A stretch of DNA of 16,050 bases from a virus (taxonomy: Duplodnaviria > Heunggongvirae > Uroviricota > Caudoviricetes), in IMG/VR virus record IMGVR_UViG_2558860161_000009; one strand, written 5' to 3'. The position numbers and the translations under genes are program-made. The notes below the pieces were generated by a model. That model did no database searches and was not told where the DNA came from. It saw only the letters and a program-made list of their open reading frames with translations. Shown here piece after piece: positions 4,019-16,050 of the stretch (the first letter of the stretch is position 1; every line of letters starts with the position of its first letter).

Positions 4019-4331
4019 CATGACCAATTACCAGTACCTGATTAATCCGCATTTTAACTGTGAGCATGATATTGCTAAAAAGGTTTATTCCGCTGCGGAT
4101 GGGGCTACTGACAATATATCAATGGCTGTTGCGTCAATTGGTAGCCTGATGTGGCATGCGTCAGAAAATGAGGAATATGACGAAAAGGCTATGCGCATTG
4201 ACATGGGTAATATTGGCTTGTTACTGGCAATGCTTGGGCAGTTTGATATTTCGTTACGGTGCACCATTGAAAATGCCACAGATGCATTAAATGCCATAAA
4301 GAAAGCGAATACTGATTCAAATCGGGGATAA
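4011..4331 (+). CDS. Hypothetical protein (106 aa)
   Basis: ORF tightly packed in the same orientation as the flanking genes; no recognisable motif. Confidence 0.5.
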   Translation: MPDMTNYQYLINPHFNCEHDIAKKVYSAADGATDNISMAVASIGSLMWHASENEEYDEKAMRIDMGNIGLLLAMLGQFDISLRCTIENATDALNAIKKANTDSNRG

Positions 4332-4337
4332 ATAATC

Positions 4338-4637
4338 ATGAGAACATATTTATCTGGCTTAACTGCCAGCGGTTATGCACACCCCAAAATTATCCCCGGC
4401 GCTATTTATCTGGATAAGAACGGTAACAGAGTAACGGTAAAAGAACTGATGTTTGACCGTGTTTATTTTATTCGTGATGGCTATTCATTTCATAGTTCGC
4501 TGAACGTGGAGATCTTTATTTGCAGATTCCGGCGGGAAATCCCGCTTTCCAGAAATAACCATGTGTCATGTATGGATGTTGATAAAAAACTACAGGAACT
4601 GAAAAACATGATTGCCGCGTGGAGAGAGCAGAAATGA
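4338..4637 (+). CDS. Hypothetical protein (99 aa)
   Basis: ORF whose stop overlaps the start of the replication gene (ATGA at 4634-4637); no recognisable motif. Confidence 0.5.
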   Translation: MRTYLSGLTASGYAHPKIIPGAIYLDKNGNRVTVKELMFDRVYFIRDGYSFHSSLNVEIFICRFRREIPLSRNNHVSCMDVDKKLQELKNMIAAWREQK

Positions 4638-6757
4638 AAAAAGCGCCAAATTTAAAACACCAGCCGCGTGACAAAATGACGGAAGTCATCATTTTTGCGG
4701 GTAGTAATGCGTGGGCACATGCGAAGCAGTGGCAGGAACAGGACGGGCGACTGGCTGGCGATAACGTGCCTCCTGTCTGGCTTGGAGAGCAACAACTTGC
4801 CGAACTGGACAACCTGCAAATCGTACCGGACGGACGCTATCGCGTGCGTCTCTATCAGGCGGGGTTATTGCGTCCGGGGCTTGTTAATACCATCGGGCAG
4901 AAACTGGCAGCGGCAGGTGTCAGGGATGCTGATTATTACCCTGAAGGAATGCACAGCCAGAAACGGGAGAACTGGCGCGAATATCTGGAACGTGAACGGG
5001 CAGAGCAGGCGGAAAAGAAAAAGGTAGTTGAACTGCCTGTAAAGAAAAAAGAGCCATGCTATCAGGATGATGAATTAAAGCCCCGCGTTGAAAGTCGCGC
5101 CGATGGTGTTTTCTGGGTAACGCCCAAAGTGGATAAGCAGTCAGGTGAAATTATCCGGCCTGAGACGTGGTTATGTTCTCCACTTGAACTACTGGGAACG
5201 GGGGTAATCGGTAAAGAGCATTACCGCGTGATGCGCTGGAAAAAATTCGCAAACCATGAAGTCATAACAATGGCGATCCCGTGTGGTGGCATTGGCGACC
5301 GTGACGGCTGGCGGTTGCTTAAAGATCACGGCCTGAACGTGACAACAAACGGCAAATACAGGGCTATCCTGGCTGACTGGATGCAGTTAAGCGGAAGCCA
5401 TGAGGAATGGCAGCTAAGCACAACAACGGGCTGGCATTTTGGCGCGTACATCATGCCGGATGGTTCAATCATTGGTGATTCAGAAAAACCGATCCTGTTT
5501 ACCGGAAAAAGTGCCGCTGTTAATGGCTATTCGGTTGTGGGTACGGCGGAGGGCTGGCGCGACAGCGTGGCGCGGCTGGCTGGTGGCAATCCGTCCATGA
5601 TGCTGGGTGTTGCCACGTCACTGGCAGCACCTTTGATTGGCCTTGTTGGTGCTGACGGCTTCGGGGTACATCTTTTCGAACAGTCATCGGCAGGGAAAAC
5701 CACCACGCAGAACATCGCTTCAAGTTTATGGGGGGAGCCGGACGCGCAACGGCTGACCTGGTACGGAACGGCGTTAGGTATCGCCAACGAGGCCGAAGCA
5801 CACAACGACGGGCTGTTACCCCTGGATGAAATAGGCCAGGCCGGAAACGCGCGGGAAGTGTCCACGTCAGCCTATACGCTGTTTAACGGTTCGGGGAAAT
5901 TACAGGGGGCGAAGGACGGCGGCAACAGGGAGATCAAACACTGGCGCACGGTGGCAATCAGCACCGGAGAAATGGATGTTGAGACATTCCTCAAAAGTGA
6001 GGGGGTAAAAGTCAAAGCAGGCCAGCTTGTCCGTCTGCTTAACGTACCGATGGAGAAAGCCACGCAATTTCACGAATACAGCACCGGAAAGGCGCACGCA
6101 GACGCGTTAAAGGATGCCTGGACTGCAAATCACGGGGCGGCGGGTCGTGAGTGGGTTAAATGGCTGGCAGACCACCAGCAGGAGGCAAAGGACACGGTAA
6201 GGGAATGCCGCGAACGGTGGCACAACCTGATACCGGAGAGCTACGGCGAGCAGGTCCACCGCGTGGGGGAGCGTTTCGCCATACTGGAGGCCGCACTAGT
6301 GCTTTCCGGTCATATTACTGGCTGGGATGTTCAGGCGTGCCGTGATGCCATTCAGCATAACTTTAATGCCTGGGTGAAGGAGTTCGGCACGGGTAACAGG
6401 GAATTTAAACAGATGGTTGAACAGGCTGAGGCGTTTTTGTCGTCGTTCGGGTTCAGTCGATACCTTCCTTACCCAAACAGTGATGAGCGTGATTTACCAA
6501 TTAAAGATCTTGCCGGATACAGAAAGGGGAGTATCAGAAATGAAGATGATGAGTTCCGCTTTTACACGTTTCCTCATGTGTTTGAGGGTGAGATAGCACA
6601 GGGATTTAATCCGTCTCACTTTGCCCGCGCGTTGAGTGCTGCCGGAATGCTGGAAGCGGGTAACGATCGCCGTTACAAGAAAAAGGCGCTCGGCAAAATT
6701 GGGGGGAAGCAGCATGTTTTTTACGTGCTGATGTTCCAGCCTGAAGCAGAAGATTAA
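4634..6757 (+). CDS. Satellite replication protein, primase/helicase-like (DUF927-type P-loop NTPase)
   Basis: About 707 aa from the ATG at 4634, which is preceded by GGAGAG and overlaps the upstream stop. Walker-A-like SSAGKTT encoded near 5683-5703; large size and position immediately upstream of an iteron cluster. Family assignment from memory of P4 alpha / PICI Pri-Rep-like proteins. Confidence 0.75.
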   Translation: MKKAPNLKHQPRDKMTEVIIFAGSNAWAHAKQWQEQDGRLAGDNVPPVWLGEQQLAELDNLQIVPDGRYRVRLYQAGLLRPGLVNTIGQKLAAAGVRDADYYPEGMHSQKRENWREYLERERAEQAEKKKVVELPVKKKEPCYQDDELKPRVESRADGVFWVTPKVDKQSGEIIRPETWLCSPLELLGTGVIGKEHYRVMRWKKFANHEVITMAIPCGGIGDRDGWRLLKDHGLNVTTNGKYRAILADWMQLSGSHEEWQLSTTTGWHFGAYIMPDGSIIGDSEKPILFTGKSAAVNGYSVVGTAEGWRDSVARLAGGNPSMMLGVATSLAAPLIGLVGADGFGVHLFEQSSAGKTTTQNIASSLWGEPDAQRLTWYGTALGIANEAEAHNDGLLPLDEIGQAGNAREVSTSAYTLFNGSGKLQGAKDGGNREIKHWRTVAISTGEMDVETFLKSEGVKVKAGQLVRLLNVPMEKATQFHEYSTGKAHADALKDAWTANHGAAGREWVKWLADHQQEAKDTVRECRERWHNLIPESYGEQVHRVGERFAILEAALVLSGHITGWDVQACRDAIQHNFNAWVKEFGTGNREFKQMVEQAEAFLSSFGFSRYLPYPNSDERDLPIKDLAGYRKGSIRNEDDEFRFYTFPHVFEGEIAQGFNPSHFARALSAAGMLEAGNDRRYKKKALGKIGGKQHVFYVLMFQPEAED

Positions 6758-6779: not shown

Positions 6780-6905
6780 TTGCGGGTTATGCGGGTTATC
6801 CTGTGTGTAAGTGCATTAACTGTATGAATAAAAAGGAAATCAATAACCCGCACGTAACCCGCAAAACGGCAGTTATAACCCGCAAAAGTGCGATTATAAC
6901 CCGCA
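6780..6905. repeat. Iteron cluster, probable replication origin: 2 tandem GCGGGTTAT copies followed by 4 inverted (A/G)TAACCCGC copies
   Basis: Forward copies at 6782-6790 and 6791-6799; inverted copies at 6843-6851, 6854-6862, 6875-6883 and 6897-6905 (spacing 11, 21, 22 bp); AT-rich segment 6810-6842 in between; directly downstream of the replication gene. Confidence 0.6.
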
Positions 6906-6968: not shown

Positions 6969-7394
6969 ATGACAGCACAGATAGCTGCTTACGGGCGGTT
7001 GGTGGCTGACCCGCAGTTAAAGACCACCAGCAAAGGGACACAAATGGCGATGGCGAGTATGGCGATTCCTCTTCCGTGCAGCCAGGCAGATGACGGAACA
7101 GCGACGATGTGGTTATCAATTCTGGCGTTTGGCAGACAGGCCGATGCACTGGCAAAACACCACAAAGGCGAGCTGGTGAGCGTGGCGGGTAACATGCAGG
7201 TAAGCCAGTGGACAGGCCAGAACGGGGAAACGCGGCAGGGCTGGCAGGTTATCGCAGACAGCGTAATCAGTGCGCGAACGGCGCGACCTGGTGGCAAAAA
7301 AGGCCAGCAGGGGCAGGCCACTGACGCACTGAACAGGGCAAAACAACAGACAGGCCAGCACGATGACCCGTACGGGGATGAAATACCGTTTTAG
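6969..7394 (+). CDS. ssb: Single-stranded DNA-binding protein (SSB-like)
   Basis: 141-aa product with an OB-fold-like N-terminal part, a Gly/Gln-rich linker (PGGKKGQQGQ) and an acidic C-terminal tail ending DDPYGDEIPF, resembling the SSB C-terminal D-I-P-F tip. Confidence 0.7.
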   Translation: MTAQIAAYGRLVADPQLKTTSKGTQMAMASMAIPLPCSQADDGTATMWLSILAFGRQADALAKHHKGELVSVAGNMQVSQWTGQNGETRQGWQVIADSVISARTARPGGKKGQQGQATDALNRAKQQTGQHDDPYGDEIPF

Positions 7395-9080: not shown

Positions 9081-9087
9081 TGAGCAA

Positions 9088-9109
9088 GGAGGCTTCGGCC
9101 TCCTTTTTT
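9088..9109 (+). terminator. Rho-independent terminator/attenuator immediately after the capsid gene
   Basis: Stem GGAGGC (9088-9093), loop TTCG, stem GCCTCC (9098-9103), then TTTTTT (9104-9109). Confidence 0.6.
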
Positions 9110-9128
9110 AGCTTCAGGGGATACACCG

Positions 9129-9689
9129 ATGAAAAACACCGATTTTGAAATCCGCACATCTGAACTGACCGCCAGCAATAAAAAGCTGGTGGGGTATGCC
9201 GTTCGCTGGAACAGCCTTTCAGAAATTATCTGGGACGAATTCCGCGAACAGTTCACGCCGGGGGCTTTTGCTGACTATCTGGCGGCGGGTAATGATGTGC
9301 GCTGCCTGTATGAGCATGACTATACCCAACTGCTGGGGCGCACCAAATCCGGCACTCTGGTACTGACTGAGGATAACACCGGGTTACGTTTTGAACTGAC
9401 ACCGCCGGATACCCAGCTTGGAAAAGATGTGCTTACGCTGGTGGAGCGTGGCGACATTACAGGAATGAGCTTTGGTTTTCGCGCATTATGCGAGGAGTGG
9501 AGTATCGCGCAAAAACCGTATTTGCGTACCGTAACCGCCGCTGAACTCCGTGAAATCACAATAACGTCGATGCCTGCTTATCCAGAATCTGGCGTGGAGA
9601 TTGCCCACCGTTCGTTGTTTGCACAGCACCCTGAATTATGCCCGACAGGAAATAATCGTCATCGCTGGTCTGAGCTGGCGGGGTTGTGA
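9129..9689 (+). CDS. Prohead (head maturation) protease, HK97 family
   Basis: 186-aa product with GYAVRWNS...FTPGAFADYL...LYEHD...LGRT...GLRFEL...GDITGMSFGF, characteristic of HK97-type prohead proteases; sits between capsid and portal genes. Confidence 0.8.
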   Translation: MKNTDFEIRTSELTASNKKLVGYAVRWNSLSEIIWDEFREQFTPGAFADYLAAGNDVRCLYEHDYTQLLGRTKSGTLVLTEDNTGLRFELTPPDTQLGKDVLTLVERGDITGMSFGFRALCEEWSIAQKPYLRTVTAAELREITITSMPAYPESGVEIAHRSLFAQHPELCPTGNNRHRWSELAGL

Positions 9690-9690
9690 T

Positions 9691-10905
9691 ATGTGGTGGC
9701 CTTTTAGTCGTAAAAAAAGCGAGCAGCGTAACCTGTCCATTGATGATTTTCTGGCGCTGTCCGGCGTACCGAATACCGGATCCGGAGAATATGTTTCTGC
9801 CGGGACGGCTGAATCATTGCCTGCAGTGATGAACGCGGTTTCTGTCATCGCTGAGGCGGTGGCCACGATGCCGTGTTATCTGTATCTGGTACGTAATGAC
9901 AAGGGCAGGGAGGCGCGGGAATGGCTGGACAGTCACCCGGTAGATATTCTGCTGAATGAGCAGCCTAATTCGTGCCAGACACCTTACCAGTTTAAACGCA
10001 CAATGATGCGTCACTGCCTGCTGAACGGTAACGCCTATGCGGTTATTGAGTGGGGGCAAGACGGGCAGCCAAAATCACTTCATCCTTATGCGCCGGGGTG
10101 TGTTGTACCGGAACGCACAGGCGCACACAAATACCGCTATACCATCACCGAACCCTATACAGGAACGGTGCGCACGTATTTACAGGAAGAAGTTCTGCAT
10201 CTCCGCTATGCCTCGGATGATGGCTTTCTGGGGCGTTCCCCTGTCACGATTTGCCGTGAGGCGCTTGGGCTTGGCCTTGCTCAACAGCGCCACGGAGCCA
10301 GCATTATGAAAGATGGCATGATGGCGGCAGGGATTATCACGTCAGGCGAATGGCTGGACGGCGTGAAAGGTAAACAGGCATTAGATGCTCTGGAACGCTA
10401 CAAGGGGGCGAAAAATGCCGGAAAAACGCCAATCCTTGAAGGGGGCATGGATTACAAGCAACTGGGAATGAGTAACCAGGATGCGGAATGGCTGGCCTCC
10501 CGTCGCTTCTCCATTGAAGACATCGCCCGCATGTTCAACGTATCGCCTATTTTTCTGCAGGAATACAGCAACAGCACCTACAGCAATTTCAGCGAGGCAA
10601 GCCGCGCGTTTCTGACCATGACAATGCGCCCATGGCTGGCGAACTTCGAACAGCAAATCAAGGCCGCTTTGCTGGTGGCTTCTCCCGTACCTGGTACCCG
10701 TTATCTGGTTGAGTTTGATTCAGCCGATTTATTACGCGCCACACCCACCGAACGTTATGCCACGTATGAGAAAGGGATTAAGAACGGGATCATGAATCCG
10801 AACGAAGCCCGTGAGCGTGAGGGTATGCCGCCGCGTGAAGGTGGTGATGAGTTCAGCCAGGCATGGAAACAGACTGTGGAAATTAAAGGGAGAAAAGATG
10901 AGTGA
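9691..10905 (+). CDS. Portal protein, HK97 family
   Basis: Start taken at ATG 9691 (MWWPFSRKK...), 1 nt after the protease stop; the ORF track's 9601 start would overlap the protease gene. Size (404 aa) and position fit a portal. Confidence 0.75.
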   Translation: MWWPFSRKKSEQRNLSIDDFLALSGVPNTGSGEYVSAGTAESLPAVMNAVSVIAEAVATMPCYLYLVRNDKGREAREWLDSHPVDILLNEQPNSCQTPYQFKRTMMRHCLLNGNAYAVIEWGQDGQPKSLHPYAPGCVVPERTGAHKYRYTITEPYTGTVRTYLQEEVLHLRYASDDGFLGRSPVTICREALGLGLAQQRHGASIMKDGMMAAGIITSGEWLDGVKGKQALDALERYKGAKNAGKTPILEGGMDYKQLGMSNQDAEWLASRRFSIEDIARMFNVSPIFLQEYSNSTYSNFSEASRAFLTMTMRPWLANFEQQIKAALLVASPVPGTRYLVEFDSADLLRATPTERYATYEKGIKNGIMNPNEAREREGMPPREGGDEFSQAWKQTVEIKGRKDE

Positions 10906-12285: not shown

Positions 12286-13930
12286 GTACGCAGAAGGCGT
12301 AAAAAACGGCAAAATTACGGCCTGTAAACGACTGAAACAGGCCGTTAAACGGTATTTTTCTGACCTTGAAAACTCCCTTTACACGTTCGATCCGGAGGTC
12401 GTGGAGCGGTTTATTGCCTTTTCCCGGGTGTGTCCGCACGTAAAAGGCGCAATGCGCGGTAGTCCCATTGAACTGGAGCCGTGGCAGCAGTTCGCCTTTG
12501 CCTGCATCCTGGGCTTTAAGGTTAAGGCCACCGGACGGCGCAAATACACCAGCGCATTCATTGAAGTACCGCGAAAAAATGCCAAATCCACGGTCGCCGC
12601 TATCCTGGCTAACTGGTTTCTGGTTATGGAAAACGGGCAGCAGGATATTTACACCGCCGCCGTGAGTCGTGATCAGGCGCGGATCGTGTTTGATGATGCG
12701 CGTCAGATGTGCCTTTTATCCCGACCGTTACGAAAGCGGGTAAATATTCAGGCGCACAAGGTGATACACCCGAAAACCAACAGCCTGTTAAAGCCACTGG
12801 CAGCAAAAGCGGCAACCATTGAGGGGACAAACCCGAGTCTTGCCATTGTGGATGAATATCACCTGCACCCAGACAACGGGGTTTATTCCGCACTTGAGCT
12901 GGGGATGGGGGCGCGTCCGGAGGGGCTGTTATTTGCCATCACCACATCGGGGAGCAACGTTGTTTCAGCCTGTAAACAACACTATGACTATTGCTGTCAG
13001 ATACTGGATGGTGAAGAGATGAACGAATCCATGTTCGTTCTGATTTACGAGCTGGATGATGAAAGCGAGGTTGACGATCCGGCGATGTGGATAAAGGCGA
13101 ATCCAAATATCGATGTTTCCGTCGATCGTGAAAAACTGGCCTCAACCATCCAGAAAGCGCGGGGTATTCCGTCGCAGTGGGTGGAAATGCTCACCAAGCG
13201 ATTCAATATCTGGTGTCAGGGGGCTACGCCGTGGATGGGTAACGGTGCATGGGCGGAGTGCGCCGGAACGTTCGCGGAGGCGGATTTATACGGGCAGGAG
13301 TGCTACGCGGGGCTGGACTTATCATCAACCAGCGATATTTCCAGCGTGTGCTATGCCTTTCCGGTCGGTAAAAAGATTATGCTGGTTTCCCGTCACTATC
13401 TGCCGGAATTTCAGCTACAGAACCCCGCCAATAAAAACCGCGCCATCTATCGCCAGTGGGTAAAGGCGGGCTGGATACGCACAACACCGGGTGACTGCAT
13501 TGATTATGACCGTATCCGTGATGACATCATGGCGGATGCAGAGAATTTCAATATCAGGCTGGTGGGCTTCGATACATGGAACGCCACGCACCTGAGGACG
13601 CAGCTACAGGGGGCAGGATTTGAGGTGGAGCCGTTCCCGCAAACATACCTTCGTTTCAGTCCGGCGGCGAAATCGTTCGAAGTTTTTGTTAACCGGAAGG
13701 TGATTGTGCATCGTGGTGATCCGGTGCTGGCCTGGTCAATGAGTAATGTTGTGATGCAGAGTGACGCGAACGCCAATATCAAGCCGAACAAGAAAAAATC
13801 ATCCAACAAGATAGACCCGAGCGTTGCGGCGCTGATGGCGTTTGGCACATTCCAGGCAGAGCATGAGGAATTTGCATTTGATATGAGCGACAGCCACAAA
13901 GAGCGACTTGCGGCGTTTGATGGGGTATGA
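12269..13930 (+). CDS. terL: Terminase large subunit
   Basis: 553-aa product with ATPase-like N-terminal part (VPRKNAKST resembles a Walker A region) and nuclease-like C-terminal part. Start as given in the ORF track is a TTG overlapping the terS 3' end; the exact start is uncertain. Confidence 0.85.
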   Translation: MTAWHEYAEGVKNGKITACKRLKQAVKRYFSDLENSLYTFDPEVVERFIAFSRVCPHVKGAMRGSPIELEPWQQFAFACILGFKVKATGRRKYTSAFIEVPRKNAKSTVAAILANWFLVMENGQQDIYTAAVSRDQARIVFDDARQMCLLSRPLRKRVNIQAHKVIHPKTNSLLKPLAAKAATIEGTNPSLAIVDEYHLHPDNGVYSALELGMGARPEGLLFAITTSGSNVVSACKQHYDYCCQILDGEEMNESMFVLIYELDDESEVDDPAMWIKANPNIDVSVDREKLASTIQKARGIPSQWVEMLTKRFNIWCQGATPWMGNGAWAECAGTFAEADLYGQECYAGLDLSSTSDISSVCYAFPVGKKIMLVSRHYLPEFQLQNPANKNRAIYRQWVKAGWIRTTPGDCIDYDRIRDDIMADAENFNIRLVGFDTWNATHLRTQLQGAGFEVEPFPQTYLRFSPAAKSFEVFVNRKVIVHRGDPVLAWSMSNVVMQSDANANIKPNKKKSSNKIDPSVAALMAFGTFQAEHEEFAFDMSDSHKERLAAFDGV

Positions 13931-14217
13931 CGAGAATGACTGAAACTGATCTACTAAAAATAATTCGCCGCATTACCGGAATCAGTCAGCAGCCTGACGA
14001 ACAGGCTACACAGCCGGACAGCGTGATAGCCGAAAATTACGCGCGTGTGGTGGCTGAGGTAATGCGCCGTGACGGTATTGAGCTTAACGGCGTGGATATG
14101 CGCAACATACGAACCAGAGTTCTTGAGTTGCTGGCATACCGTCGCCGTTCTCAACAACGGAGGGAGAGCGCGAAAAATACTTACCAGTGGAAGAAGCCGG
14201 AACGGTTGCGGCGGTAG
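13927..14217 (+). CDS. Hypothetical protein (96 aa) downstream of terL
   Basis: ATG overlaps the terL stop (ATGA); basic C-terminus; no recognisable motif. Confidence 0.5.
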   Translation: MTRMTETDLLKIIRRITGISQQPDEQATQPDSVIAENYARVVAEVMRRDGIELNGVDMRNIRTRVLELLAYRRRSQQRRESAKNTYQWKKPERLRR

Positions 14218-14544
14218 ATTCCTGATATTCAGTAAAACCACGAATCTGTGGTGTTTACTGGCGCGGTTACGGCGGTGACACGCACCGAGGCAGAACAATT
14301 ACCGTAGGTTAAAGCGACAGTATTCACACCAAAGGCAGAAATTAGCGGTTAACGTAACTGACTGATATTTTCAGGAACAGCCAACGGCTGAGGCCGGAGC
14401 TATAAGAATAGCTTTGGGTACAGTCCTCAGTTTTGAGGGATGTTAACCAACTGAATAATAAGCAAACCTCAAAATTGAGTTTTGTATCTGCCTGAGTTAT
14501 TTCTGTGCTAACTTGTTGATATTCCCGACGGCCCAAAAATGGGT

Positions 14545-14674
14545 TGGCTGGTGGGTGAGTTGCAGATTTGCAACTCGACCATGAAACTACGGAAACTACC
14601 CGTAGTTTGGGTAGTAAGAGCAACACCCAGATTTTGGGGCTTACTCGCGATCCCCAAATAAAGGGGATCGGTGG
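14545..14674. repeat. Copy 1 of a ~130-bp hairpin-rich direct repeat
   Basis: Nearly identical by eye to 14982-15108. Contains hairpins GAGTTGCA-GATT-TGCAACTC, AACTACGG-AAACTAC-CCGTAGTT and GATCCCC-AAATAAA-GGGGATC. Confidence 0.7.
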
Positions 14675-14702
14675 CATCACTGGCCCCACTTTCCTGATGT
14701 GT

Positions 14703-14857
14703 TTGCGGGTTATTTGGGAGAGGTTGCGGGTTATTTTGAATGACTTGCGGGTTACGATTTGGCTAACATTTGAACATGTCATTTTTCAACGCATTGATAT
14801 TAAATAATAAAAAATACTTAGCACGCGAAGATAACCCGCTAACCCGCATAACCCGCA
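14703..14857. repeat. Second iteron cluster of the same family as 6780-6905 (ori-like)
   Basis: TTGCGGGTTA(T/C) at 14703-14713, 14724-14734 and 14745-14755 (exactly 21 bp apart); AT-rich spacer 14756-14830; inverted (T)AACCCGC at 14833-14839, 14841-14847 and 14851-14857; then TATATATATA. Confidence 0.6.
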
Positions 14858-14981
14858 CTGTTTTGTATATATATACGAAAAATTGCATTCAGGAGGGGTA
14901 GCAAAATCCCTACCGTCTCTTATCTCTTGGAGTGCCCGCCTCTTCGAATTTTAACCCCCGTGAAATTACAAAATTTCCCTG

Positions 14982-15108
14982 ACTGATGGCGAGTTGCAGA
15001 TCTGCAACTCGACTATGAAACTACGGAAACTACCCGTAGTTTGGGTAGTAAGAGTAACACCCAGATTTTGGGGCTTACTTGCGATACCCAAATACAGGGG
15101 ATCGGTGG
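14982..15108. repeat. Copy 2 of the ~130-bp hairpin-rich direct repeat
   Basis: Aligned by eye to copy 1 with a handful of substitutions (for example GATTTG to GATCTG, AGCAAC to AGTAAC, TCGCGATCC to TTGCGATAC). Confidence 0.7.
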
Positions 15109-15513
15109 AAGAAATATCGTTTCTCATATGTGAGTACCGAGGGCGGAATTCCGCCTTCGGTTACTTATTGTGCTCATGCACAGGGAGGGGCGGGTCAAAT
15201 CTCTGTACCCTGACGTCTTCCGGACTGCCCGCTCCATCGATTTTTTATACCCGCGAAAAATGCTTCACGCTGGTGGGCATGATGCGTGGGGATGCTGATA
15301 ATGGGTTATTGTGGGATAGATGTCTCATACAATAAGAGATTCATAATTTGCTTTTTAATACTGTTATACTCGCCGCCTTTCTACCGTGCTCATGCTTTCG
15401 CATATTTTCGGCTTTGTGCAATAATCCGTATATCACTCGGTGTATCACTTTTAGCTAAAATGCATGGCGTGTTTGTTAATTTAACTGATTAAAATCAGTG
15501 GGATATAAAGTTT

Positions 15514-16050
15514 ATGAAACATATTGTAGAAGTAATGATCCCCGAAGCGGAGATTAAAGCGCGTATCGCCGAACTGGGTCGTCAGATTACTGAGCGTTAC
15601 AAAGACAGCGGCAGCGATATGGTGCTGGTTGGTCTGCTGCGTGGCTCATTTATGTTTATGGCGGACCTGTGCCGTGAAGTTCAGGTATCTCATGAAGTCG
15701 ACTTTATGACCGCCTCCAGCTACGGTAGCGGCATGTCCACCACCCGTGATGTGAAAATCCTCAAAGATCTGGATGAAGATATCCGTGGCAAGGACGTGCT
15801 GATTGTTGAAGATATCATCGACTCGGGGAATACACTGTCGAAAGTGCGTGAGATCTTAAGCCTGCGCGAACCGAAGTCGCTGGCGATTTGTACGCTGCTG
15901 GATAAACCGTCCCGTCGTGAAGTGAACGTCCCGGTAGAATTTATTGGTTTCTCGATCCCGGATGAGTTTGTGGTGGGTTACGGCATTGATTACGCACAGC
16001 GTTACCGTCATCTGCCGTATATCGGCAAAGTGATTCTGCTGGACGAGTAA
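15514..16050 (+). CDS. hpt: Hypoxanthine phosphoribosyltransferase
   Basis: 178-aa product with the type I PRTase PRPP-binding motif [14 protein letters not shown]; the sequence matches E. coli Hpt as I remember it. Complete gene ending in TAA at 16048-16050. Confidence 0.95.

Follow-up and report, generated by a model that had tools for sequence, protein, structure and literature searches.

The window analysed here, a stretch of 16,050 nucleotides, ends in about 1.2 kb of non-coding DNA that separates the last gene of the island from hpt, and within this DNA a hairpin-rich sequence occurs twice. What is this sequence, and why is it present in two copies? The original prediction had placed near-identical repeats at 14545–14674 and 14982–15108, and a repeat search of the window confirmed these positions in essence. 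The search identified direct repeats of 121 nt at 14554–14674 (R1) and 14988–15108 (R2), both read on the + strand, that are 94% identical with seven mismatches, a similarity far above chance. The two copies start 434 bp apart, and we refer to the 121-nt repeat unit as R. In the alignment, fainter similarity reaches a further ~45 bp leftward of both copies (14509–14553 and 14943–14987) and takes in a small hairpin, H0. As also predicted, the copies bracket the right-end iteron cluster, which we found within 14675–14987.

At least three strong hairpins had been expected in each copy, and folding revealed four. In R1 these are H1 (14557–14576), H2 (14584–14608, with an alternative H2' at 14595–14615), H3 (14618–14646) and H4 (14649–14669). 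The hairpins of R2 have the same coordinates plus 434, with an A·G mismatch within H4. Folded as RNA, the 146-nt R segments reach −51 to −64 kcal/mol; relative to dinucleotide shuffles, their z-scores are −5.0 to −8.4 over both strands. H0 lies before R1 on the + strand (14530–14545, GGCCCA-AAAA-TGGGTT), and the alignment places its counterpart H0' before R2, also on the + strand (14962–14977, GAAATT-ACAA-AATTTC); among variants, the loop and position of this hairpin are kept and its stem varies. A Chi sequence, GCTGGTGG, is found on the + strand at the left edge of R1 (14547–14554). The commonest R variants carry it, and R2 is among those in which it is degenerate.

The window is a capsid-forming PICI satellite located between gcd and hpt. 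Its gene order, read from the window ORFs and the annotation of a near-identical region in strain KSC9, starts with an integrase, DUF6387, an AlpA-type regulator, Icd-like, DUF4222, a DUF927 primase-helicase and SSB, and ends with the major capsid protein, prohead protease, portal, connector, HNH, P27-family TerS, TerL and a 96-aa phrog_1561 protein. Capsid-forming PICIs have been described with this same gene content (bioRxiv 10.1101/2022.09.08.507074). Over its 1220-bp right end, the island matches strain PEC209 at 100% identity. The attR core, GTATATCACTCGGTGTATCACT, comprises 22 bp at 15428–15449, and in KSC9 (L001, 1379–1400) int is preceded, at a distance of 22 bp, by an identical 22-mer.

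The 96-aa protein, here called hyp, is encoded by the last gene of the late operon in the ORF list (13927–14217, + strand). It matches PHROG family phrog_1561 with an E-value of 1e-53, and no Pfam family was matched. We predicted its structure to look for a nucleic-acid-binding fold, and the AF2 model consists of three helices at low confidence (pLDDT 63, too low for a fold search); a domain search of hyp detected no DNA-binding domain. Between the hyp stop codon and R1 lies an optional mosaic insert, 'pre' (14231–14508, + strand), which is 98% identical in L008 and missing from L002 and L004, and fragments of which are found shuffled among other islands. Read from the sequence, repeats of a hyp-stop/TGATATTC motif flank this insert. 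The usual follower of R, 'post1' (15109–15185, + strand), holds a terminator-like hairpin that the terminator scan placed on the + strand at 15136–15161, with an 11-bp stem and the tail TACTTATTGT. The stem includes a + strand G·U pair, as read from the sequence.

To determine how widespread R is, we queried complete E. coli genomes with one copy by BLAST and found it in 707 of 5426 (13%), at a median of one place per genome. A sequence search of 50,697 phage records did not find R, and an exact-pattern scan of the GTDB species-representative genomes gave zero matches. Scanning the GTDB species representatives with a hyp profile yielded one locus, in Shigella flexneri, which has no R. Three matches were to 'plasmids', one of which is a 10.8-kb circular PICI. 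Our full-text search with three R sub-sequences retrieved no paper containing them, and R goes unmentioned in papers on PICIs, capsid-forming PICIs and helper-embedded satellites. The R family thus appears to be undescribed.

The genomic context of R was surveyed in annotated genome matches and 80 IMG/VR loci, with 89 loci counted for the order of hyp and R. In about 86 of these 89, hyp precedes R in the same orientation, and in most surveyed loci R is followed by post1 with its terminator-like hairpin. At every locus examined, R lies within a PICI-type island. The full unit consists of H0 and H1–H4 (about 135 bp) and, normally, the terminator-like hairpin. Carriage of R is optional: in a sample of 48 hyp-bearing loci drawn regardless of R, 22 had it and 26 did not, so that its role must be dispensable or replaceable. 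These data show R to be non-coding, conserved and specific to satellites, an optional module that forms the 3' end of the late (capsid/packaging) operon in E. coli PICIs.

This distribution bears on whether R belongs to a known class of repeat. REP, BIME and ERIC sequences are likewise hairpin-forming and non-coding and are often found in 3' UTRs ahead of terminators, where REP elements can shield upstream mRNA from 3' exonucleases. However, REP and ERIC sequences occur in tens to hundreds of core-chromosome copies, whereas R occurs once per PICI, in 13% of genomes and in a fixed place and orientation, and its primary sequence is far more conserved. The original prediction had seen no resemblance to ERIC or REP, which agrees with the median of one copy per carrying genome and with the PICI-type island around R at every locus examined. 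A common chromosomal intergenic repeat unrelated to mobile elements, the outcome that would have spoken against the prediction, is not what we found: R is confined to 707 of the 5426 genomes and, among the loci examined, to PICIs. We also considered a MITE-like mobile element and rejected it, as R is fixed downstream of hyp in one orientation and has no visible terminal inverted repeats.

The islands that carry R are diverse. They include both capsid-forming islands and Rpp-type islands with lambda-like cos sites, and they occupy at least five att sites, namely gcd/hpt, cspD/clpS, rcnR/thiM, tRNA-Ile/mug and a prophage late-gene site. Their integrases are only 47–48% identical, and from island to island R is accompanied by different regulators, primases and integrases. 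The primase-proximal iterons also differ, with GCGGGTTA in the window versus P4-type TGTTCACC in L002 and L091. The presence of R across differing att sites, packaging systems and iterons shows that it is not an att arm, a cos/pac site or a Rep-specific origin component. Together with the comparison to chromosomal repeats above, R is neither an att, cos or Rep-binding sequence nor a REP/ERIC sequence.

Two of the explanations first offered for the repeats, att-flanking DNA duplicated in tandem or sequential integrations and a packaging-related site, gain no support from these comparisons or from the layout of the islands themselves. R does lie less than about 0.9 kb from attR, in non-coding right-end DNA, and two cos sites are known in some PICIs (PMC6739421), as would suit att-flanking or cos/pac DNA duplicated by tandem integration. 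However, both copies are internal to the island and on the same side, 320–875 bp from attR, with 320 bp between the end of R2 and the attR core, and a comparison with the left junction found no R near attL. R coincides with neither recombination core and is not tied to one integrase or att specificity. Rpp-type islands have two lambda-type cosN sequences (PMC6739421). In the Rpp-type island L005, cosN GGGCGGCGACCT is found at 4838 and 5373, upstream of hyp and 600–1100 bp upstream of R (6001–6132); no lambda-type cosN was found in or near R. The cos1 and cos2 sites of EcCICFT073 do resemble the R pair in being duplicated cis elements in the right-hand part of an E. coli PICI (PMC6739421), but lambda-type cosN lies upstream of hyp, outside R, and R is dispensable despite near-identical terminases, as capsid-forming islands with 99%-identical TerL exist both with and without it. 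An origin of R in duplicated att or cos/pac DNA is barely credible.

We next considered replication, given the module that separates R1 from R2. This origin-like iteron module, 'mid' (14675–14987), has three direct copies of GCGGGTTA at 14705, 14726 and 14747, an AT-rich spacer and three inverted copies, TAACCCGC, at 14832, 14840 and 14849. The GCGGGTTA core is also that of a primase-proximal cluster at 6782–6904, which sits just 3' of the primase gene in the canonical PICI ori position. Outside the iteron core, mid is unrelated to this cluster. Homologues of mid are present in 160 genomes at a coverage of at least 80%, some at the right end and others beside the primase-proximal origin. The right-end cluster of L006 and that island's own primase-proximal CTGTCTACC iterons are not cognate.

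The nearest known parallel is satellite P4, which, like the window island, has a primase-helicase and two ~120-bp direct repeats in non-coding DNA near attP/int. According to its record annotation, P4 crr (4291–4590) contains repeats at 4291–4410 and 4471–4590 and lies 4.7 kb from ori (9086–9809). In both P4 and the window, a second iteron cluster is found kilobases from the first; those of the window, read from its sequence, are at 6782–6904 and 14705–14856 and have the same GCGGGTTA core. R could thus be a replication accessory, either as a single-strand initiation or primosome-assembly signal or because R-mid-R forms a second cis-replication region like P4 crr. Besides the shared iteron core that R brackets in the window and the two 120-bp direct repeats annotated beside attP in P4, the general resemblance of multi-hairpin segments of ~130 nt to G4-type priming signals counts towards this idea.

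Conversely, the P4 crr repeats each hold five type-1 iterons, whereas the 121-bp repeats of the window hold none and only flank them: GCGGGTTA was not found inside R, and iterons occur only between the copies. In most islands R is normally single and away from any iteron cluster, and islands with unlike and unrelated iterons, GCGGGTTA or the P4-type TGTTCACC of L002 and L091, both carry it. Mid is in turn found at right ends without R (L006, L105 and L113), R1 and R2 have the same orientation, and R has no sequence similarity to any phage record searched. We also compared the AAACTAC motif of R with the island iterons and rejected the likeness, as only the 5-mer GGTAG is common to it and the L006 iterons. 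The likeness to P4 ori/crr is one of form only, and we consider a role of R in replication quite improbable.

If mid and R are separate modules, how did the window come to have R on both sides of mid? Few genomes have the doubled arrangement: of the 5426, 14 contain the R1|mid junction, 15 the mid|R2 junction and four the full 1.2-kb region, and two R copies 434–436 bp apart were found in 4 of the 80 IMG/VR loci. Right-end regions of the islands are a patchwork of 30–300-bp modules that vary in order and copy number. L004, at the same hpt site, has the order hyp-R-post, L008 has hyp-pre-R-post, L007 has hyp-partial R-3.5 kb cargo-mid-R-post, and L006 has hyp-other modules-mid, without R. At the R1|mid junction, R terminates in ...ATCGGTGG, and in L006 and L007 the sequence just upstream of mid terminates in TTCGGTGG or TTCGATGG, both resembling the 3' end of R. 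This R-like end points to a join at a 7-bp microhomology, TCGGTGG. From these alignments we infer that the doubled arrangement is a rare recombinant in which a hyp-pre-R segment was probably joined at TCGGTGG to a mid-R-terminator segment like those found in other islands. Such a join would leave the origin-like cluster bracketed by two R copies. Recombination between R1 and R2 would restore the single-copy order hyp-pre-R-post, and the doubled arrangement should be prone to collapse in this way. We read the duplication itself as an ordinary recombination product. The original prediction had included recombination-related sites among its possibilities, and this much of that idea holds, as does the position of R at the boundaries of mosaic modules; it gained no further support.

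Is the sequence of R constrained? Divergence was compared in 23 distinct pairs of R and hyp whose loci had been found by means other than R, and the mean pairwise values were 0.077 for R, 0.103 for hyp codon positions 1+2 and 0.240 for hyp position 3. Since R diverges more slowly than hyp positions 1+2, it appears to be constrained, judging from these alignments. Variation in the 23 pairs clusters near the R edges and within the loop of H4, and the stems, loops and linkers of R are equally conserved. In a larger set of 58 pairs, the divergence of R correlates with that of hyp (r = 0.82). The low divergence of R could partly result from gene conversion between co-resident islands.

Gene conversion is central to another explanation, that R is a boundary ('linker') sequence with no function beyond homology, at which PICIs cross over and swap right-end modules and cargo; its low divergence would then come from repeated conversion events. 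The patchwork of 30–300-bp modules in varying order fits this well, as do flanks that switch exactly at the ends of R. In L007, a partial and a full R enclose mid and the 3.5 kb of cargo, repeats (hyp-stop/TGATATTC) also border the pre insert, and Chi is present at 14547. Linkers at lambdoid mosaic junctions are similar in being short conserved sequences where flanking modules change, in their association with Chi and in the placement seen on both sides of the L007 cargo. However, R is longer and more structured than typical linkers and evolves more slowly than neighbouring coding DNA, including hyp codon positions 1+2. Its position and orientation are invariant, and its divergence follows that of hyp with r = 0.82, which indicates co-inheritance rather than independent sweeps. 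Many R variants also lack Chi. The coding part is enriched for Chi on its + strand, but elsewhere, at the right ends of other islands, Chi has mixed orientation and therefore fails to account for R. We find it fairly unlikely that R is a crossover boundary and nothing more.

What, then, might R do at the end of the late operon? We tentatively favour, with confidence a little short of even, that R is a structured 3'-UTR RNA element of this operon, protective or processed and possibly with a specific partner. R would be transcribed on the + strand within the late-operon mRNA as a structured 3' UTR. It would act in cis, as a protective or processing structure at the 3' end before the terminator. 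It might also give rise to a stable 3'-UTR-derived RNA that has a sequence-specific partner, and such a partner would account for loops and linkers that are as conserved as the stems. The arrangement of the locus is consistent with such transcription: the scan found no terminator-like site between the hyp stop codon and R1 and a strong one 28 bp past R2, and a promoter scan found no sigma-70-like promoter adjoining R on either strand. R was also considered as an intrinsic terminator itself and rejected, since no T run follows any of H1–H4 and the terminator scan finds such a site only after R2, at 15136–15161.

Variation among R copies offers a further view of the proposed RNA. H0 has at least six different stems over 19 sequence variants with the loop kept, and some of these variants have G·U pairs that are valid on the + strand only. 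RNAalifold identified H4 extension pairs of C-G (13 sequences), U-G (2) and U-A (4) and an H1 extension with both GC and AU. By minimum free energy, the + strand RNA is more stable than the − strand in 43 of 44 distinct units, an advantage that comes partly from G+T composition. Of the five common polymorphisms, as read from the alignment, four leave the + strand structure unaffected. Other observations do not single out this strand: by z-score, R1 folds better on the − strand and R2 on the + strand, and the H1 variant of L003-type copies pairs on the − strand only. Within H1–H4, covariation does not exceed that of shuffles, with 95.3% of cells paired versus 95.0% and one compensatory pair, in a test of low power because all known copies are at least 77% identical. 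The GTDB scans found no copies in other species, so distant homologues were not available for the covariation analysis.

Known RNA families offered no match. Rfam covariance models gave no match to the block, nor to the whole window at the gathering score, and at E ≤ 10 the region 14200–15520 had chance-level matches only, none of them relevant. ARAGORN found no tRNA or tmRNA. The original prediction had also raised a duplicated small structured RNA gene, which survives in part: a structured RNA is possible, more as part of the late-operon 3' UTR than as an independent duplicated gene. We found no promoter, no Rfam family and no significant covariation in H1–H4.

The structured 3'-UTR element that we favour has parallels in lambda sib and 3'-UTR sRNAs, which are like R in their place at the operon end just before a terminator hairpin, their strong multi-hairpin fold and their lack of an own promoter. 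Unlike at lambda sib, integration leaves R joined to its upstream gene, and R has no Rfam family. A more specific proposal, which we regard as rather doubtful, is that R is an undescribed, satellite-specific structured non-coding RNA that the PICI late operon releases from its 3' end, to act in trans on the helper phage or host by base-pairing or protein titration. If this were true, R might tune helper late gene expression or the competition between island and helper. It would also account for the slow evolution of loops and linkers and for the carriage of R by about half of the islands.

Even conservation, perfect palindromes and a 9-bp-periodic AAACTAC/GTAGTTT array suit protein-bound double-stranded DNA equally well. 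The palindromes of R are GAGTTGCA-N4-TGCAACTC and GATACCC-N7-GGGTATC, and the array reads AAACTAC AAACTAC GTAGTTT GTAGTAA, or with its 9-bp period AAACTACGG AAACTACCC GTAGTTTGG GTAGTAAGA. R may be a double-stranded DNA platform, with palindromes and array as operators for an island, helper or host protein. One candidate binder is the adjacent basic-tailed phrog_1561 protein, and its complex with R could control transcription or shape a nucleoprotein structure close to attP and the origin. Stems, loops and linkers are evenly conserved, variants differ by an indel of exactly one 9-bp AAACTACNN unit, the linkage of R to hyp is tight and of fixed orientation, and compensatory changes in palindromes are also expected of dimer-binding sites. 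Conversely, hyp has no detected DNA-binding domain and an AF2 model of low confidence, and the regulators, primases and integrases differ among R islands. Loops of 4–7 nt between arms of 7–9 bp are more typical of folded hairpins than of operators, and G·U-type intermediates, as in the U-G pair of the H4 extension and in the H0 variants, are meaningless in duplex DNA. A DNA-binding platform is thus possible, if unlikely.

R could also be a duplicated small gene for a protein or type I toxin. Frame +0 is open through R and would encode 26 aa, MKLRKLPVVWVVR(A/V)TPRFWGLLAIPK, or 40–52 aa from upstream starts, and in one strain (L005, 6000–6158) PGAP annotates an ORF of 52 aa across R. This frame has the highest synonymous share, 18 of 46 variants versus 25% expected, and the 9-bp indel preserves it. 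However, the synonymous excess is not significant after six-frame correction, and a − strand frame is also open. A Shine-Dalgarno sequence is absent, and the start and stop vary among R1, R2 and other variants. The stop, which falls within the variable loop of H4, is lost in R2, and L003-type copies carry an internal stop. That R encodes a small protein is very unlikely.

PICIs, capsid-forming ones included, are widespread in E. coli, where they drive gene transfer and phage interference, and to our knowledge their non-coding cis elements are almost uncharacterised. The analysis of this locus defines a discrete, constrained, island-specific non-coding module that is separate from att, cos and ori functions. 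It further describes the island right end as a shuffled mosaic of small hairpin modules, including a movable origin-like iteron cassette that here gives a pair of cognate iteron clusters like those of P4 ori and crr. If R is a functional RNA or a protein-binding site, it would represent a new regulatory layer in satellite-helper biology.

Short repeats recur around the right end of the window, where R, a 121-nt hairpin-rich non-coding repeat, follows hyp, the last late-operon gene. Small hairpins of the type we call H0 lie between the hyp stop codon and R, at 14530-14545 and 14962-14977, and have equivalents in other loci. Across loci, the A-rich loop of H0 is conserved on at least six different stems, and a conserved TGATATTC motif precedes the hairpin. 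A similar motif and hairpin are found directly 3' of the hyp stop codon (14218-14262), so that short repeats also flank 'pre', the insert between this stop codon and the first R copy.

In other islands, accessory cargo is located directly 3' of R or is enclosed by one partial and one full copy of it (L003, 6258-7019; L007, 3457-7000). Examples include a gene of the abortive-infection family and several hypothetical genes on the minus strand. R thus lies at the boundary of a region whose cargo varies. Separately, the second R copy of an IMG/VR locus (L039, from about 10088 onward) is truncated at position 105, where GGCTTTGTTGAATAAATCG follows, a sequence that resembles an IS903/IS5-family terminal repeat.

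At the opposite end of the island (window 1), the near-identical copy in strain KSC9 (L001, 1379-1423) has only 22 bp between the attL core and the int start codon, which is too little space for int to have its own promoter when integrated. Directly before the attR core (window 15397-15449) lies a promoter-like site, TTCGCA-17-AATAAT with TG. This predicted promoter would point toward hpt when the island is integrated and toward int in the circular form. One probable instance of an excised circular island is a 10,790 bp E. coli sequence deposited as a non-mobilizable 'plasmid' (NZ_CP148328.1), which has full PICI gene content, comprising int, alpA, primase, a capsid-protease fusion, DUF1441, hyp and R.

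R-bearing PICIs were also found within prophage late genes in O157:H7 146N4 (L002) and EP91A (L003), where they adjoin truncated terminase gpA or major capsid genes, matching the description of helper-embedded satellites (bioRxiv 10.1101/2022.07.18.500453). Chi sites (GCTGGTGG) are strongly co-oriented with the genes and with the presumed packaging direction. Ten occur on the + strand of the 16-kb window (253, 3182, 5579, 8361, 9185, 9437, 10671, 13558, 14547 and 15269) and three on the - strand, and 78 related 2.5-kb coding segments contain 76 on + and 10 on -.

The window contains two iteron clusters separated by about 8 kb. The first (6782-6904) closely follows the DUF927 primase gene on its 3' side, and the second (14705-14856) is near attR. 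Both have the GCGGGTTA core and the same architecture of direct copies, an AT-rich spacer and inverted copies, and their paired placement is similar to the layout of P4 ori and crr. The primase-proximal iterons of two other R-bearing PICIs, L002 (3945-4233) and L091 (7437-7725), are CTGTTCACC/GGTGAACAG, and within these is the 8-bp motif TGTTCACC, which we take to be the P4 type-1 iteron. In the island of MS 200-1 (L006, 1960-2260 versus 7001-7300), the primase-proximal iterons are CTGTCTACC, whereas those in the right-end 'mid' module, the origin-like iteron module, are GCGGGTTA. An origin-like cassette at the right end therefore need not be cognate with the initiator of the island that carries it. 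Such a non-cognate cassette might permit replication in trans by another island, or might be a relic.
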